From: Escherichia coli
GTDB taxonomy: Bacteria > Pseudomonadota > Gammaproteobacteria > Enterobacterales > Enterobacteriaceae
Reading direction: 5' to 3' (one strand)
Assembly (NCBI RefSeq): GCF_001677475.2
Contig: NZ_CP015229.1
DNA length: 64,000 nt
Shown here one piece after another: positions 30,239 through 58,242 of the stretch. The translations under genes and the position numbers were made by a program. The notes beneath the pieces are model-generated. The model was not told the origin of the DNA, searched no databases, and saw nothing but the letters and a program-made list of their open reading frames with translations. How positions within the stretch are numbered: the first letter of the stretch is position 1; the number at the start of each line of letters is the position of its first letter.

Positions 30239-30814
30239 TCAGGTCAGTGCGCCACCCTGGCGGCAGCGAGCGAAGCGCAGGATATCTTCTGCCAGCCGAT
30301 GTGCGGTGTCGACATCCGCCTGGCTACGATTCACCAGCATTCGGCTTAAACAGCCTTCCAGCACCAGTTCCATCTGCTTTGCTACCATCGCCGGATCGTC
30401 AACTTCCAGCGTGGTTAACAGTTCGTGGGTGAAATCGTAGGCCGCGCTTTTTTGCTGATCGGCCAGTTGATGAATAGGGTGGCCAGGATCGGGATAAAAC
30501 GTACAGGCAGCGATAAATAGACAGCCCGGATAGCGGTTGTTTTTAACGCACTCCGATAACGCCTGATAACGTGCCAGCAGCTTTTGTTCGGCGGTTTGCG
30601 TTTCGTCCAGCATCAGCTGACGACGCCAGACATCTATCTGTTGGCTAAGATAACGCAGCGCATCGTAGAGGATTGCCTCTTTGTCTGGCCAGAAGCGGCG
30701 CAGCTCGTCCAGTGGATAATCCACACGTTCAGCAACCATCTCCAGCGTGGTGTTGGCAATCCCTTGTAATTCTAATAATTTCAGGGCTTCTCCCAGTACA
30801 TCTTCACGTTGCAC
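30239..30814 (-). CDS. yjdC: TetR-family transcriptional regulator YjdC, 191 aa
   Basis: ORF 30239..30838 recognised as YjdC; preferred start is GTG 30814..30812, which has a GGAGG SD 8 nt upstream; the upstream GTG at 30838 is the alternative. Confidence 0.8.
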
Positions 30815-30850
30815 GCTATTTTCCTCCGTCTTTCCCACTGCAAGTGTCGT

Positions 30851-35833: not shown

Positions 35834-36169
35834 GTGAACCTTCTTTTTCAAGCTGCCAATGATTTGCTTTAAACACACAGAATATATGTGGTTTCGAATG
35901 TTTTTCGACCGACGATTATCCCCTGCATCGACCGAATACCCGAGATCATATGCTGCTTGAGGATTTCTACCGTAATCTGGATCACTTTAAGTGCCGGTTT
36001 TTACCCCTTAATTATTAATTTGTGAAATAGATCACCGCTTTGGGATTACTACCAAAAATAGTTGCGCAAACATCTTGAAATTTTGCTAATGACCACAATA
36101 TAAGCTGAACGCGATTCGCAACCCATTCAGGTAGCCGGGGTTAACCGGCTGCTATTACAGGAGAAACCT

Positions 36170-36646
36170 TTGCGCTGGTTACCTTTTATTGCCATTTTCC
36201 TTTATGTCTATATTGAGATTTCAATCTTTATTCAGGTTGCCCATGTATTGGGGGTATTGCTGACCCTCGTGCTGGTTATATTCACGTCAGTTATCGGTAT
36301 GTCACTGGTACGTAACCAGGGCTTTAAGAATTTCGTGCTGATGCAGCAAAAAATGGCGGCGGGTGAAAACCCTGCGGCGGAGATGATTAAAAGTGTTTCG
36401 CTGATCATTGCCGGTTTGCTGCTTTTATTACCGGGCTTTTTCACCGACTTCCTCGGTCTTCTGCTTTTATTGCCGCCGGTGCAAAAGCATCTGACAGTGA
36501 AGTTGATGCCACATTTGCGCTTTTCTCGCATGCCAGGCGGCGGTTTTAGCGCCGGGACCGGTGGCGGTAATACTTTTGATGGTGAGTACCAGCGAAAGGA
36601 TGATGACCGCGACCGCCTTGATCATAAAGACGATCGCCAGGATTAA
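36170..36646 (+). CDS. fxsA: Inner-membrane protein FxsA (suppressor of F exclusion of phage T7), 158 aa
   Basis: Protein MRWLPFIAIFLYVYIEISIFIQVAHVLGVLLTLVLVIF... recognised as FxsA; start codon is TTG with an AGGAG SD upstream. Confidence 0.88.
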   Translation: MRWLPFIAIFLYVYIEISIFIQVAHVLGVLLTLVLVIFTSVIGMSLVRNQGFKNFVLMQQKMAAGENPAAEMIKSVSLIIAGLLLLLPGFFTDFLGLLLLLPPVQKHLTVKLMPHLRFSRMPGGGFSAGTGGGNTFDGEYQRKDDDRDRLDHKDDRQD

Positions 36647-47702: not shown

Positions 47703-47710
<8 letters not shown>

Positions 47711-49511
47711 TCGCCTTCTCCTTCTTATTGGCTGCTTCCGCCTTATCGGCTGCATCCGCTTCGCCACCGTAAACACGTTTAGCTGGCGGCAGCGTAGTAA
47801 TCTTCACGTCGCTGTACTCCAGGCGAGTCGTGCCATCAGCATCGCGGAAGGCGAGGGTGTGTTTGAGGAAGTTGACGTCGTCACGCTCGGTGCAACCTTC
47901 GTCCAGACGCTGGTGTGCGCCGCGGGACTCTTTACGTGCCATTGCGGAGTGCGCCATACATTCAGCAACGTTCAGACCGTGGCCCAGTTCAATGGTGTAG
48001 AGCAGGTCGGTGTTGAACACGCTGGAGGTGTCGGTGATGCGCACGCGCTTGAAGCGTTCCTGCAGCTCAGCCAGCTTGTCGATGGTTTTCTGCATCAGTT
48101 CCGGCGTACGGTAGATACCGCAACCTTCTTCCATAGCCAGGCCCATTTCGTCGCGGATCTTCGCCCAGTTTTCGCCGCCATCCTGGTTAACCAGATCTTT
48201 CAGACGTTGTTCAACGCCAGCTGCCTGCGCTTCAATTGCCGCTTCGTTGCCATTACCGGCAGTTGCTGCACGCTCTGTCGCTTGTTCACCGGCCAGACGG
48301 CCGAAGACCACCAGTTCCGCCAGGGAGTTAGAACCCAGACGGTTTGCACCGTGCAGACCAACAGAGGAACATTCACCCACGGCGAACAGACCTTTAATGC
48401 GGGTTTCACAGTTCTGATCGGTTTCGATACCGCCCATGGTGTAGTGTGCGGTCGGACGTACCGGAATCGGTTCTTTAACCGGATCGACGCCAACGTACGC
48501 TTTCGCCAGTTCGCAGATGAACGGCAGACGTTCATGCAGTTTTTTCTCGCCGAGGTGACGCAGGTCGAGATAAACCACATCACCACGCGGTGTGGAGATG
48601 GTGTTGCCTTTACGCCATTCGTGCCAGAAGGCCTGAGAAACTTTGTCGCGTGGACCCAGTTCCATATACTTGTTTTTCGGCTCGCCCAGCGGAGTTTCCG
48701 GGCCCATGCCGTAATCTTGCAGATAACGGTAGCCATTTTTGTTGACCAGAATACCGCCTTCACCACGGCAGCCTTCGGTCATCAGGATACCGGAACCTGG
48801 CAGACCGGTTGGGTGATACTGAACGAATTCCATGTCACGCAGCGGAACGCCGTGGCTTAGCGCCATACCCATACCGTCACCGGTAACGATGCCGCCATTG
48901 GTATTGTAACGATAAACGCGACCCGCACCGCCGGTAGCCATAACGACCGCGTTAGCACGGATCTGCACCAGCGTGCCTTCCATCATGTTCATTGCTACCA
49001 GGCCGCGAACATGACCATCATCAACCAGAATATCCAGCACGAAATGTTCGTCAAAACGCTGGATCTGCGGGAATTGCAGAGAGGTCTGGAACAGCGTGTG
49101 CAGCATATGGAAGCCGGTCTTATCGGCGGCGAACCAGGTACGCTCGATTTTCATGCCGCCGAAGCGACGTACGTTGACGCTACCATCCGGGCGACGGCTC
49201 CATGGGCATCCCCACAGTTCCAGTTGGGTCATTTCGGTGGGGCAGTGGTGGACGAAATAATCCACGACATCCTGCTCACACAACCAGTCGCCACCCGCGA
49301 CTGTATCGTGAAAGTGATATTCGAAGCTGTCATGATCCTGCGCGACAGCGGCGGAGCCCCCTTCTGCAGCAACGGTATGGCTACGCATCGGGTATACTTT
49401 TGAGATTAGTGCGATTTTTGCATTTGGATTTGCCTGCGCGGCAGCAATTGCAGCACGTAATCCCGCGCCACCGGCGCCTACAATGGCAAGATCGGCTTGA
49501 AAGGTTTGCAC
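47703..49511 (-). CDS. frdA: Fumarate reductase flavoprotein subunit FrdA, 602 aa
   Basis: Protein [38 protein letters not shown]... recognised as FrdA; start codon is GTG. Confidence 0.95.
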
Positions 49512-49643
49512 GACATTCCTCCAGATTGTTTTTATCCCACAGCCCCGTACTTCAGGGTAAGTGCCTGAAAGTTACGGTCTGCGAACGCTATTCCACTGCT
49601 CCTTTATAGGTACAACAGTATAGTCTGATGGATAAGTCTGAAA

Positions 49644-52534: not shown

Positions 52535-52684
52535 TCATATGAAATCCTGCAACTCATCGTCTCTCCGGCGATGAGTTGTCAGGAAGTAATGCGTATGGAT
52601 GATACTCTCCAGGGCCGGTGATAACTGAAGATGATGTTAAGCTGCTAAATGAGCCACGTTGACATCATTTGGCAGCTTCATGCA

Positions 52685-55600
52685 TTACAAACTTCCCGCC
52701 TGACGACCTTTGCCCGCAGACGTCAGCGTTCTCCCCGTTTGCTTACCGTTGAGGCTTTCCAGACGCATCTGGAAGGGCGGGAATGGCATATCGATACCGT
52801 GGGCGTGGAAGCCTGCCAGAATCAGCTGGTGGATCTCATGGCGTAGCGGCATACGGTGACCCATCTCAGCGGCGTAAATACGCAGCTCGAAAATCTGAAT
52901 CCCCTGTTGCAGATCCACCAGGAAGACTTCCGGTGCCGGGTTGTCGATCACCAGCGAGCAGCGACGCGCTGCGGTGAGCAGGATTTCCGTCACTTCTTCA
53001 CTGTTGGCATCGGCAGGAGCCGGAATCGTCAATACCACGCGCGTGACCGAGTCAGAGAGCGACCAGTTGATAAACTGCTCGGTAATAAACGCCTTGTTCG
53101 GCACGATAATTTCTTTGCGGTCCCAGTCGCTGATGGTGGTGGCGCGGGTGTTAATTTTTGTCACGCTACCGGTGAGATCGCGGATCGTCACCGTATCGCC
53201 AATGCGAATCGGTTTTTCGAACAGGATGATCAGGCCAGAGATAAAGTTGGCGAAAATTTCCTGCAAACCAAAACCGAGACCAACACCGAGCGCGGCGACC
53301 AGCCACTGCAATTTCGACCACTCAATACCAATCATTGAGAAGCCGACCAGCCCGCCAATCAGCATCAGCAGATATTTGGTGATGGTGGTGATGGCGTAAC
53401 CCGTACCCGGCGTTAAATCCAGGTGCTGCAAAATCGCCAGTTCCAGCAGCGCGGGCAGGTTGCGCACCAGCTGCGTGGTGATGATAAATACCAGAATGGC
53501 AATCAGCACCGCACCGAGGGTAATCGGCTCCAGACTTTCCACGCCCTGTACCGTGGAAGTGACATCCCACAGCGAAATATTTTCGAGGAAGCCGAAAGCG
53601 GAATGGATTTCTGACCACAGCACAATGACCGAAAGCAGGGCGATCAACATCAAAATTGAGCGCACCAGCCGCAAGGATTGCGCACTGATGGCATCGAGAT
53701 CGACTTCGCTTTCATCGACTTCAATTGCCCCTTCCGGGCTACTGTGATGATGCGCTTCCTCTTCGCCACGTGCACGTTGCGCTAACATCTCTGCCCGGCG
53801 ATGCTTCGCCCGGTCAAACGCCAGCCTGCGGCGTTGGATCAGCATCCAGCGGCGGATAACGTGATAAACCACCAGTAGCAGGAACCAGATGGCAACCGAG
53901 GTTTCAAGCCTCGCTAACAGTGCCTGCGCCGTTGCCAGATAACCCACCGCCGACGCCAGAATAGCAACCAGTGGCGCGCCAATCATCATGTTCCACAGCA
54001 TATGGTTGGTAATGTTGTCGCCGCTACCCTCTTTGTTGAGATACAGCGGGATACCGGCCTTTTTCAGGCTGAGGGTGACCACCGCCAGCGCACCGCAAAT
54101 GAGGATAAAGCAAAGCCGTCCCAGCGAACCGGAAAATTCGCGGTCGTCGAGATTATCGAACATCATCAGCGCCATAATCAGCGGCACAATAAGCCCGATG
54201 CTCATCAGGTAGTAGCGCATCCCACGGGAAACCCGTTCGCGTGGCCAACCAAAATGAGCGATAAACAAGCCGTTCGGGCGGGCAAAGGTGGCGCAAATCA
54301 TCACTACCCACAGCAGCGGCACGGTGGCTGTTACGCCATCACCAATCGCGACCGCCAGCGGATAAGGCCACGCCTCGCGCAAGCCGTAACCCAGCGTCAT
54401 CCACAGCACTGGCAGCGGTGACGCGACGAGAATCGACCAGAAAAGAGTGCGTAACGTCAGCCAGAAGTGATCCTGAGTCACTTTGCCGACTTTCGCCGCC
54501 GAACGTTCAAGAAAACGGGTGAAATATCGGCGCGAGTAAATACTGCAACCGACCAGAATCAACGCGCCAAACAGCGGCAAAATCGTCTCTTTGCTGGTCA
54601 GCATCATCACACTGGCTTTGCCCAACTGACTGAAGGTGTCCAGCGAAATGAGACGACGCAGATCCTGGGCGATTTCCAGCGGCCAGGCGATGGTCATCGG
54701 ACGTACGTCAGAGGTCCAGAACAGATAGCGGTGCGTCGCTTCATTCACCTCTTTCAGCGCATCCTCCAGTTGCCCGTTGGAGACTTTCAGCTTGGTCAGT
54801 TCCAGTAGTAGCGTGTCGCCACCCTGCAACAATGAGTTCAGCAACTCACGCTGAGTGCGTAGCTGTGCTTCGAGAATACGGTTTTGCTCGGCAGTCAGCG
54901 GCTGACCGTCGGCCTGATGAATTTGCCTTAGCTGCGGCTGTTTATTAAGCAGATCCTCATAACGTAACCGTTGCACACGCAACTGCGCCATTTCGGTATC
55001 AAGCTGTTGTGGTTTTGGCATTTCCGGCAGCCGTGCCACCTGCGCCCGCAACGCTTCGCCGAGCAGATTGGACGATCCCAGCCATTGCGACTGTTCACGC
55101 AGCGTATTCAACGCCTGCCGGACCTGTAACGTCTGGCTGGCAGCCTGACGCTGTTGCGAGGCAACGAGATCCATCCGCTGCGCCTGTTGATTCAGCGCTG
55201 CCGATAGTTCGCGGTTTATTTTGAATTGCGCGACGATATCTTTCGGCAAATCGGCACTGTTTTCTGCCAGCAATTCGGTACTTTCCAGCGCCCGCTCCGC
55301 CTCAAGCTGACGTTGGCTGTTCAACTGATTACGTAAGGTCTGCAAATACGCATCCAGTTGCTGGCTCTCTTTTTCCGCCAGCTCTGAGCGTAAGCGCGCT
55401 AATTCCTGGCGGTTATTGGCGGACAGCTGCGCCAGTTCCAGTTCATCGACGAGCGCTTTCAGGCGTGCGGAGTCAGACTGCAACGCGAAATTTTGTGCCT
55501 GATTGAGCGGGGAATTGCCGGTAAGCGTCCCCAGGCGGCGCTCGATTTCATTTAACTGACGGCGGGCATCGGTTTGCTGTTGCGGCAGTTGATTCAGCGA

Positions 55601-56008
55601 ATCGGCAATCTCGCGGGCGCGTTCCTGCTCTTGCTGGGCCTGACGGCTTTTATCCAGCAACTGGCTGCTGACCTGGAGAATTTCCTGATTCAGCGCGTCG
55701 GTAGACATTCCCGGTGACACGCTGCGCGGCTCGTCACGCATGTTGTTTAATTGCGCGCGCAGAGTAGCGGAGAGTTTCGGATAATTATCAATGACTTCTT
55801 GATATTGCTTGATGCGCTCAAGGGAACCTTTCCGTTCCTCAAGCGCATTTAAGGCAGACTGGAGCGCCTCTACGACTTCCGGTTGCGCGGGTTTCGCCGC
55901 TTTTGCCTGCTCCAGTTCTTGTGAGATTTGTTTGCTATCGGGGGCCGTCGCGGCGTACGCCCCCCAACTGAGGCACCAGGCCATCAGAAAAGTGATAATC
56001 AGGCGCAC
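52685..56008 (-). CDS. mscM: Miniconductance mechanosensitive channel MscM (YjeP), 1107 aa
   Basis: Protein MRLIITFLMAWCLSWGAYAATAPDSKQISQELEQAKAAKPAQ... with a long coiled-coil periplasmic domain and MscS-like C-terminus. Confidence 0.92.
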   Translation of the reverse strand: MRLIITFLMAWCLSWGAYAATAPDSKQISQELEQAKAAKPAQPEVVEALQSALNALEERKGSLERIKQYQEVIDNYPKLSATLRAQLNNMRDEPRSVSPGMSTDALNQEILQVSSQLLDKSRQAQQEQERAREIADSLNQLPQQQTDARRQLNEIERRLGTLTGNSPLNQAQNFALQSDSARLKALVDELELAQLSANNRQELARLRSELAEKESQQLDAYLQTLRNQLNSQRQLEAERALESTELLAENSADLPKDIVAQFKINRELSAALNQQAQRMDLVASQQRQAASQTLQVRQALNTLREQSQWLGSSNLLGEALRAQVARLPEMPKPQQLDTEMAQLRVQRLRYEDLLNKQPQLRQIHQADGQPLTAEQNRILEAQLRTQRELLNSLLQGGDTLLLELTKLKVSNGQLEDALKEVNEATHRYLFWTSDVRPMTIAWPLEIAQDLRRLISLDTFSQLGKASVMMLTSKETILPLFGALILVGCSIYSRRYFTRFLERSAAKVGKVTQDHFWLTLRTLFWSILVASPLPVLWMTLGYGLREAWPYPLAVAIGDGVTATVPLLWVVMICATFARPNGLFIAHFGWPRERVSRGMRYYLMSIGLIVPLIMALMMFDNLDDREFSGSLGRLCFILICGALAVVTLSLKKAGIPLYLNKEGSGDNITNHMLWNMMIGAPLVAILASAVGYLATAQALLARLETSVAIWFLLLVVYHVIRRWMLIQRRRLAFDRAKHRRAEMLAQRARGEEEAHHHSSPEGAIEVDESEVDLDAISAQSLRLVRSILMLIALLSVIVLWSEIHSAFGFLENISLWDVTSTVQGVESLEPITLGAVLIAILVFIITTQLVRNLPALLELAILQHLDLTPGTGYAITTITKYLLMLIGGLVGFSMIGIEWSKLQWLVAALGVGLGFGLQEIFANFISGLIILFEKPIRIGDTVTIRDLTGSVTKINTRATTISDWDRKEIIVPNKAFITEQFINWSLSDSVTRVVLTIPAPADANSEEVTEILLTAARRCSLVIDNPAPEVFLVDLQQGIQIFELRIYAAEMGHRMPLRHEIHQLILAGFHAHGIDMPFPPFQMRLESLNGKQTGRTLTSAGKGRQAGSL

Positions 56009-56029
56009 GTCAGCGTTTCCTTTGATGGA

Positions 56030-56998
56030 TTAGACCTGGTCTTTTTTGTCGTCAACCAATGGGCTGGCGTCGTGTTCTGCTTCGATCTCTTCAGCAGGAA
56101 GCGGGGCGGGTTCAGCGTCTGGCGTAACAAAGGTTTCGGTAGATACTGCCAGCGGCTGGCCAATTTTCGTGACAGACAGGCTTTCCAGTTGCTCAACCAG
56201 ATTCACTTTACCCGGTGCAAACAGGTTGATAACGGTGGAACCGAGTTTAAAGCGACCCATTTCCTGGCCTTTCAGCAGTGCCACAGAACCGTCGTTTTCC
56301 CCGGCAGGCCAGGTCCAGCGCTTGATGATACCTTCGCGCGGCGGCGTAATGGTGCCCGCCCAGACCGTCTCAATGCTGCCTACAATCGTCGCCCCGACCA
56401 GAATCTGCGCCATTGGGCCAAATTCGGTATCGAACAGGCAGATCACGCGTTCGTTACGGGCAAACAGATTCGGCACGTTCTGAGCGGTGAGATGGTTAAC
56501 GGAAAAGAGATCGCCCGGCACGTAGATCATCTCACGCAGAATACCGTTGCACGGCATGTGTACGCGGTGGTAGTCACGCGGGGAGAGGTAAGTGGTCACA
56601 AACGTACCGTTGCGGAACAGGTCCGCCATCAGATAGTTGCCTGCCAGCAGGGCTTCGAGGCTGTAGTTGTGGCCTTTGGCTTGCAGGATTTTATCTTCTT
56701 CGATTTTACCCAACTGGCTGATAACGCCATCGGCAGGCATAACCAGTACATTCGGATCGGTATCGATTGGGCGTACTTCGTCACGCAGCGGACGGACAAA
56801 GAATTCGTTAAAGGTGCGGTAGCTGGCGGTATCCGGCTTTTGCGCCTCTTTCATGTCGACCTTGTAGTATTTAACGAACAGATCGATAACCAGTTTTGTC
56901 AGCCATCCTGCCCGCTTGCTTGCGCCCCAACCCGCCAGGCGAGTAAGCCATAGTTTCGGCAGAATGTACTGTAGCGAAAGTTTAAATGAATTTAACAA
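56030..56998 (-). CDS. psd: Phosphatidylserine decarboxylase proenzyme Psd, 322 aa
   Basis: Protein [33 protein letters not shown]... recognised as Psd, including the LGST self-cleavage motif. Confidence 0.95.
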
Positions 56999-57095
56999 GG
57001 TAGCCTCCAGGCCATTGTTTTGTCGTTCCTGATCCGGCCTACATGCCGGATCCTGAAAAAAAAGGGGACGATTCTAACGACGGTTAGCTTAATTG

Positions 57096-58148
57096 TCAGT
57101 CATCCGTATCAGAAAAGTTTTTACGCGTTTTTACCTGCGCCATGCTTTCCAGAATACGGTGATAGTTTTCGAAACGGGTTTCCGCGATTTTTCCTTCCTC
57201 AACCGCTTCCCGGATAGCGCAGCCCGGATCGGTATCGTGTTTGCAATCGCGATATTTACACAGACCTAAGTAGTCATGGAATTCGACAAAGCCCTGAGTG
57301 ATTTGTTCCGGCTCCAGGTGCCAGAGGCCGAACTCACGCACTCCTGGGGAGTCAATCACATCACCGCCGTGCGGGAAGTGATACAGCCGAGCGGCGGTCG
57401 TGGTGTGCTGACCGAGACCCGAGTTGTCAGAGACATCGTTGGTCAGGATCTCTTTTTGCAGCCCCAGCAACGCGTTCAGCAGGCTGGATTTACCAACGCC
57501 AGACTGCCCGGCAAAAATGCTGATGCGCCCGGTCAACGCCTCTTCCAGCGGTTTCAGCCCATCCTGAGTATGGCTGGAAACCATCAATACGCGATAACCG
57601 ATATTGCGGTAGATATCCATCTGCTCGTTGACGAATGCCATGCCTTCGTCGTCCAGCAGGTCTATCTTGTTGAGCACAATAATCGGCTCAATCTGCAAGG
57701 TTTCGCAGGCCACCAGGTAACGGTCGATAATATTGAGCGACAGCTCCGGCAAAATGGCGGAGACAATGACAATCTGGTCGATGTTGGCTGCAATAGGTTT
57801 CACGCCGTCGTAGAAATCCGGACGCGTCAACACCGAGGTGCGCTCATGCACCGCTTCCACGATCCCTTTGACATTTACGCCTTCCGCCGCCGGTTTACCC
57901 GGACGCCAGACTACGCGGTCGCCGGTCACCAGCGAACGGATGGTACGGCGAATATTGCAGCGGTGAACGTCGCCATCGGCGGATTCCACATCAGCGTGCA
58001 TACCAAAGCGGCTGATGACGATACCTTCATCAGGCTCGCCAAACAGATTGTCGTCGTAGTCGGGCTTCTCCTTAGACGTTTTAAGACGACGCTGGTGATT
58101 GGCGTTCACGCGGCGCTGCTGGCCTTTGGAGAGTTTATTTTTACTCAA
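57096..58148 (-). CDS. rsgA: Ribosome small-subunit biogenesis GTPase RsgA (YjeQ), 350 aa
   Basis: ORF 57096..58181 recognised as RsgA; the recognised N-terminus (M)[20 protein letters not shown] corresponds to a TTG start at 58148..58146. Confidence 0.88.
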
Positions 58149-58242
58149 TCGTACAGACTCCTGGTCGCCCCTGATGGGCAAAACATCTATGATACACGCA
58201 ATTGTGGATCAATATAGTCACTGTGAATGGGTGGAAAATAGC

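Follow-up and report, generated by a model that had tools for sequence, protein, structure and literature searches.

We conclude, with high confidence, that four genes in a stretch of 64,000 nucleotides of the Escherichia coli chromosome (hereafter the window, extending from basS to amiB) are translated from ordinary bacterial start sites led by a Shine-Dalgarno (SD) sequence, with UUG as the initiation codon in rsgA and fxsA and GUG in frdA and yjdC, and that psd (UUG) and mscM (GUG) belong with them. The initial annotation of the window had proposed TTG starts for rsgA (58148..58146, minus strand) and fxsA (36170, plus strand) and GTG starts for frdA (49511..49509, minus strand) and yjdC (30814..30812, minus strand), each with a plausible SD. 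All four codons can be read directly in the window and coincide with the curated starts of strain K-12, and the SD duplexes upstream of them range from -6.9 to -9.5 kcal/mol at a spacing of 5-8 nt, the values for the upstream alternatives being around zero. The accompanying statement that several genes use non-ATG codons was correct as to these four and incomplete as to the list, from which the TTG start of psd and the GTG start of mscM were omitted. The codon positions, the presence and strength of the SDs, the agreement with annotation and the cross-genus conservation are all direct observations. The features in question are as follows.

58146..58148, minus strand: TTG start of rsgA (CDS 57096..58148, 350 aa; next codons AGT AAA AAT AAA CTC, M-SKNKL)
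58158..58162, minus strand: SD of rsgA, AGGAG, 9 nt before TTG, -6.9 kcal/mol, invariant in 58 distinct leaders
58179..58181, minus strand: alternative TTG of rsgA at -33, rejected; opens the longest ORF (361 aa), dG +0.1
36170..36172, plus strand: TTG start of fxsA (CDS 36170..36646, 158 aa; next codons CGC TGG TTA CCT; N-terminus MRWLPFIAIF)
36159..36163, plus strand: SD of fxsA, AGGAG, 6 nt before TTG, -7.4 kcal/mol, kept in 9/9 taxa
49509..49511, minus strand: GTG start of frdA (CDS 47703..49511, 602 aa; next codons CAA ACC TTT CAA, M-QTFQ)
49518..49522, minus strand: SD of frdA, GGAGG, 6 nt before GTG, -9.3 kcal/mol
30812..30814, minus strand: GTG start of yjdC, also known as dicD (CDS 30239..30814, 191 aa; next codons CAA CGT GAA GAT, M-QRED)
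30823..30827, minus strand: SD of yjdC, GGAGG, 8 nt before GTG, -9.5 kcal/mol
30836..30838, minus strand: alternative GTG of yjdC at -24, rejected; opens the longest ORF (199 aa), dG +0.3
56996..56998, minus strand: TTG start of psd (CDS 56030..56998; K-12 b4160), with a GGAGG SD at 57008..57004, dG -9.3
56006..56008, minus strand: GTG start of mscM (CDS 52685..56008; K-12 b4159), with an AAGGA SD at 56022..56018, dG -5.6

The window is about 97-99% identical to K-12 MG1655. It represents a different lineage of E. coli, with no difference of importance at the six non-ATG starts, the sequences flanking these being 97.6-100% identical between the two. When every CDS start annotated in RefSeq for K-12 MG1655 was mapped onto the window, 56 genes were placed, 50 of them starting with ATG, three with GTG (yjdC at 30814, frdA at 49511, and mscM at 56008) and three with TTG (fxsA at 36170, psd at 56998, and rsgA at 58148). 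For rsgA (b4161), fxsA (b4140), frdA (b4154), yjdC (b4135), psd (b4160), and mscM (b4159), the codon, the position and the protein length are identical to those curated for K-12. In strain EcPF15, which is unrelated, the PGAP pipeline assigns to rsgA, psd, mscM, and frdA the same gene lengths as in the window, and in strain N96 it places the start of rsgA at TTG. The yjeN-yjeO genes, which lie between yjeM and mscM in K-12, are missing from the window at 52536..52684, and EcPF15 is likewise without them.

Start usage in E. coli has been reported as 83/14/3% for ATG, GTG, and TTG, respectively (bioRxiv 10.1101/063800), and relative to this usage the window shows no enrichment in non-ATG starts, with six observed among the 56 genes versus about 9.5 expected. 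TTG starts number three versus 1.7 expected (P(>=3) = 0.24, n = 56), and GTG starts are somewhat under-represented (three versus 7.8 expected, P(<=3) = 0.037, n = 56); both this deficit and the SD-strength effect described below come from a small sample and are probably unremarkable. The non-ATG starts of the window are ordinary, and the curated reference annotation already lists them. The use of the finding is mainly in annotation hygiene, as it confirms the starts given for these genes in the reference, and the genes also exemplify start recognition from sequence, through the strength and spacing of the SD together with conservation across genera.

Protein records agree with these starts. 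The RsgA product is identical to chain W of PDB 2YKR over residues 1-350, and the FrdA product matches PDB 1KF6 from residue 1 (1-602), in both cases with the proviso that PDB sequences follow database annotation, and so these matches are not independent evidence for the starts. Homology between FrdA and SdhA begins at FrdA residues 5-7. A search of the literature and supplements returned no experimental record of the N-terminus or of initiation profiling for these genes; the paper on start sites mapped with tetracycline (TetRP), main text and supplements included, mentions none of them by name or b-number. A Salmonella proteomics supplement demonstrates expression of YjdC, Psd, and FrdA, through internal and not N-terminal peptides.

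The choice of codon within each gene is specified by the SD. All in-frame ATG, GTG, and TTG codons between the nearest upstream stop and +210 nt were considered as candidates, and the 20 nt preceding each were scored by the energy of the duplex with the 3' end of 16S rRNA. In each gene, the claimed codon is alone among the in-frame candidates in combining a strong SD with proper spacing (4-8 nt), the spacing at the claimed starts being 5-9 nt and canonical. For all six genes, psd and mscM included, an in-frame GTG or TTG gives the homologous N-terminus, and the complementarity to the 16S rRNA 3' end upstream of it is better than for the competing candidates, the energies of the upstream alternatives being at or above zero. 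In two genes, the frame itself leaves little choice: the TTG of fxsA is the first ATG/GTG/TTG codon after an in-frame stop at -69, and in frdA no codon other than the GTG could serve as a start until an ATG is reached at codon 42.

As to the mechanism, the 30S subunit would be positioned by the SD located 5-9 nt upstream of UUG or GUG, and the initiator fMet-tRNA would read this codon with a first-position mismatch, the N-terminus of the protein still being methionine. Initiation by fMet-tRNA at GUG and UUG is less efficient than at AUG and is monitored by IF3 (bioRxiv 10.1101/063800; PMC11445065). Generic bacterial initiation of this kind serves ~14% (GUG) and 3% (UUG) of E. coli genes, with outputs of 10-100% of that of AUG in reporters (bioRxiv 10.1101/063800). 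The genes in the window resemble this generic type, combining a near-cognate codon with an SD at canonical spacing, and their SDs are stronger than those of the ATG genes, with a median duplex energy of -8.35 kcal/mol for the non-ATG genes (n = 6) versus -6.2 kcal/mol for the ATG genes (n = 50; one-sided Mann-Whitney p = 0.010). This difference fits the compensation between start codon and SD reported by Belinky et al. (2017; PMC5622118), and we infer that the weak codon would be offset by above-average SD strength; initiation efficiency and the purpose of the selection discussed below are likewise matters that we infer.

Conservation across Enterobacteriaceae was followed through an RsgA-based contig scan, which returned loci from 80 species with 10-kb flanks, and, for fxsA and yjdC, through homologue searches plus eight syntenic contigs from other genera (nine taxa with the window). 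The orthologous start position is kept, in 67-80 species in the first survey and in nine taxa in the second. The homologous start codon is TTG in 80 of the 80 loci for rsgA, GTG in all 80 for mscM and in 67 of 67 for frdA, and TTG in 77 and GTG in three of the 80 for psd; the corresponding counts for the ATG control genes are 80/80 for orn, 69/69 for epmA, and 59/59 for frdB. The yjdC gene starts with GTG in 9/9 taxa, with the GGAGG/AGGAG core kept in all nine, and nearly all of the 120 YjdC homologues listed are called at 191 aa. The fxsA gene starts with TTG in three of the nine taxa (Escherichia, Salmonella, and C. rodentium), with GTG in six (Kosakonia, Enterobacter, Superficieibacter, Pseudenterobacter, Klebsiella, and Cedecea), and with ATG in none, and its AGGAG is maintained at a fixed 6-nt spacing, sequence further upstream being unconserved; of the 120 predicted FxsA homologues listed, 90 start at the TTG/GTG residue. 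In psd, mscM, frdA, fxsA, and yjdC, nucleotide conservation is low upstream and rises sharply at the SD, with in-frame stops scattered upstream of psd, mscM, and frdA, located in most species just upstream in the case of mscM. In frdA, the block CTGGAGGAATGTC in the SD region is near-invariant, with conservation decaying upstream of it. The boundary is less sharp in rsgA, whose upstream leader is also conserved. Within the species, 5425 of the 5426 complete E. coli genomes contain a 43-mer spanning the rsgA start, which is identical in 4969 of them, and the single variant inspected differs at -7, the codon remaining unchanged.

Such conservation bears on the proposal that the non-ATG codons are functionally meaningless, neutral leftovers not yet mutated to ATG, which we consider unlikely while leaving it some weight. 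Genome-wide selection on start-codon identity has been described as weak (PMC5622118), the window contains no excess of non-ATG starts, and the codon alternates between TTG and GTG in both fxsA and psd. However, the start codons of rsgA, frdA, and mscM keep their first base unchanged over 67-80 species, with ATG in no lineage, while only about 1% of four-fold degenerate sites, taken as neutral, are invariant in the same loci (1/121 in frdA, 0/48 in orn, and 1/78 in epmA). The neutral benchmark consists of these three genes, as four-fold columns were too few in rsgA, psd, and mscM (13, 22, and 5, respectively), probably because length differences among orthologues break the ungapped comparison. 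The invariance of this base compared with the neutral sites argues for purifying selection on the non-ATG codon: conservation of the TTG of rsgA and of the GTGs of frdA and mscM far exceeds that of neutral sites, a pattern compatible with selection for initiation that is tuned and sub-maximal. These three codons are also more strictly kept than one would expect from PMC5622118, where selection across the genome is described as weak. On this reading, purifying selection holds the codon identities across Enterobacteriaceae, with expression levels that would be tuned rather than accidental. The argument is a modest one, and such selection is consistent with the selected non-ATG starts described for Enterobacteriaceae regulators of the lacI/cra/mlc type (PMC11445065). 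The yjdC gene resembles these in its GTG start maintained across genera, and it encodes a low-abundance regulator of the TetR/AcrR type, the parallel with lacI, cra, and mlc being by analogy only.

The conserved leader of rsgA deserves separate consideration. Positions -45 to -1 are unusually conserved across genera, following the pattern GTGTATCATAGAGGTTTTGCCC-N5-GGGCGACCAGGAG. On the minus strand of the window, the leader consists of a TATCAT box (58194..58189) and a stem formed by UUGCCC (58181..58176) and GGGCGA (58170..58165), followed directly by the SD. The 6-bp stem surrounds a hypervariable 5-nt loop, and the TTG at -33, invariant in 58/58 distinct leaders, corresponds to the first three bases of the 5' arm. 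No covariation was detected in the stem, which is invariant except for one C>U wobble, and the fold of the leader is not more stable than that of shuffled sequence (z = -0.19). Candidate identities for the element are a hairpin in the 5'-UTR, a palindrome bound by a protein, and a portion of the divergent orn promoter. One parallel to consider is infC, encoding IF3, which is autoregulated via its AUU start codon. Like infC, rsgA carries a sub-optimal start on a translation-related gene, RsgA being a 30S assembly GTPase; unlike the start of infC, the UUG of rsgA is a canonical near-cognate codon and not a rare class-II codon. By such analogy, the strict retention of weak starts (TTG in rsgA, and TTG in psd and GTG in mscM directly downstream) might be seen as an adaptive dosage device, with the rsgA UUG, behind the invariant leader hairpin, coupling RsgA synthesis to how stringently the ribosome pool (IF3, immature 30S) selects start codons. 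We give this idea very little credence. Deletion of rsgA results in minimal change in start-codon discrimination, and non-AUG initiation is not raised (PMC6868393), and the regulatory reading is weakened because start-codon selection is not relaxed in the deletion strain.

Equally doubtful to us is dual initiation, by which additional N-terminal proteoforms would arise from an ATG at -24 of rsgA (Salmonella, Citrobacter, and Enterobacter) or from ATGs upstream of fxsA (Salmonella and Klebsiella). In rsgA, an in-frame ATG is present at -24, within the variable loop, in 25 of 71 distinct leaders, and a deposited structure, PDB 2RCN (Salmonella RsgA/EngC, 358 aa), was built from it: MGDQEPVR precedes the conserved L/M-SKNKL, and this N-terminus corresponds to translation from the lineage-specific ATG through the SD (L009:9977-10000 in Salmonella arizonae, equivalent to 58172..58149 in the window). 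The annotation of FxsA is likewise inconsistent across genera (L083 4148-4663; proteins P0008-P0016 and P0023-P0027), gene callers yielding in Salmonella entries 13 additional residues that begin at an upstream ATG, MVVADGYDLQESP-L-RW, and in Klebsiella oxytoca entries the extended form MKETPV-RW. Yet none of these ATGs occurs in the window, which has AGG at -24 of rsgA in place of the Salmonella-type ATG, and they are not conserved; the rsgA ATG lies in the hypervariable loop and the Klebsiella fxsA ATG abuts the SD, neither being preceded by an SD of its own. The longer FxsA predictions translate the SD ('QE.P', the extension residues QE being the translated SD) and then have L or V where the true start lies, suggesting that the shorter TTG/GTG start is correct. 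The native protein probably lacks the eight extra N-terminal residues of 2RCN as well. Within the window, the second in-frame codons at 58181 (rsgA) and 30838 (yjdC) are not preceded by an SD, and the latter is not conserved.

These two upstream codons are also the starts of the longest open reading frames, from which RsgA would be translated as a protein of 361 aa (TTG at 58181) and YjdC as one of 199 aa (GTG at 30838). Both codons are in frame with the claimed starts, with no stop between them in the window, and in rsgA the TTG at -33 is invariant and the frame is open in most species, and so conservation alone cannot decide against it. Nevertheless, we regard both as highly improbable starts. 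The SD energies are +0.1 and +0.3 kcal/mol, respectively, and the upstream GTG of yjdC is replaced by AAA in Salmonella and Citrobacter rodentium. In rsgA, the differences seen from -33 to -1 do not follow a three-base period, the variable positions forming a contiguous 5-nt block that corresponds to the hairpin loop, and the frame is interrupted in Trabulsiella (L038) by a TAA at -6; with no SD present either, these observations make 58181 very unlikely as a start. The downstream codon is used by both K-12 curation and PGAP for rsgA, and by K-12 curation for yjdC. Finally, ATG being the commonest start, the true starts could be placed at the first downstream in-frame ATGs (at +147 in rsgA, +129 in fxsA, +123 in frdA, and +75 in yjdC), with the TTG and GTG codons being internal Leu or Val codons or untranslated, but this is extremely improbable, as these ATGs are without properly spaced SDs, the genera share a strongly conserved protein sequence ahead of them, no further upstream start codon is available in fxsA or frdA to translate the conserved N-terminal region, and in frdA the N-terminal GAGGAG dinucleotide-binding (FAD-binding) motif would be removed, homology to SdhA being evident from residues 5-7.

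The initial annotation had further warned that automated annotation insisting on ATG would misplace these starts, as seen in over-extended ORFs. ATG-only annotation would indeed shorten rsgA, fxsA, frdA, and yjdC by 25-49 codons, and the case of 2RCN provides a precedent for the concern over ATG-preferring start assignment; however, PGAP, the sole current pipeline checked, is correct for rsgA and frdA. As to the ORFs, over-extension is real for rsgA and yjdC, but not for fxsA and frdA, in which no ATG/GTG/TTG precedes the claimed codon in the open frame. Insistence on ATG was not its cause: the longest-ORF rule chose other non-ATG codons instead. The mis-start through ATG preference does not arise in the window, and it is unrelated to the over-extended ORFs.

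The rsgA, psd, and mscM genes form a series of three adjacent non-ATG genes on the same strand, and this series is kept across the 80 Enterobacteriaceae species. A permutation test for the adjacency gives P = 0.037, a value from a post hoc test, and psd-mscM has been demonstrated to form an operon of its own, driven by promoters that lie inside rsgA (PMC8138132); we rejected the run as significant on both grounds. Between the stop codon of rsgA (57096..57098) and the start of psd, an 8-bp hairpin, GATCCGGC-ATGTAG-GCCGGATC, is present at 57031..57052 (minus strand), with a T8 run that precedes it rather than follows it. Other genera have a hairpin in the same place with other stems, for example GGACCCGC/GCGGGT and GGTTCCGGC/GCCGGATC, which, judged from these sequences, suggests a structure in the 5' region of psd that may be maintained by compensatory change.
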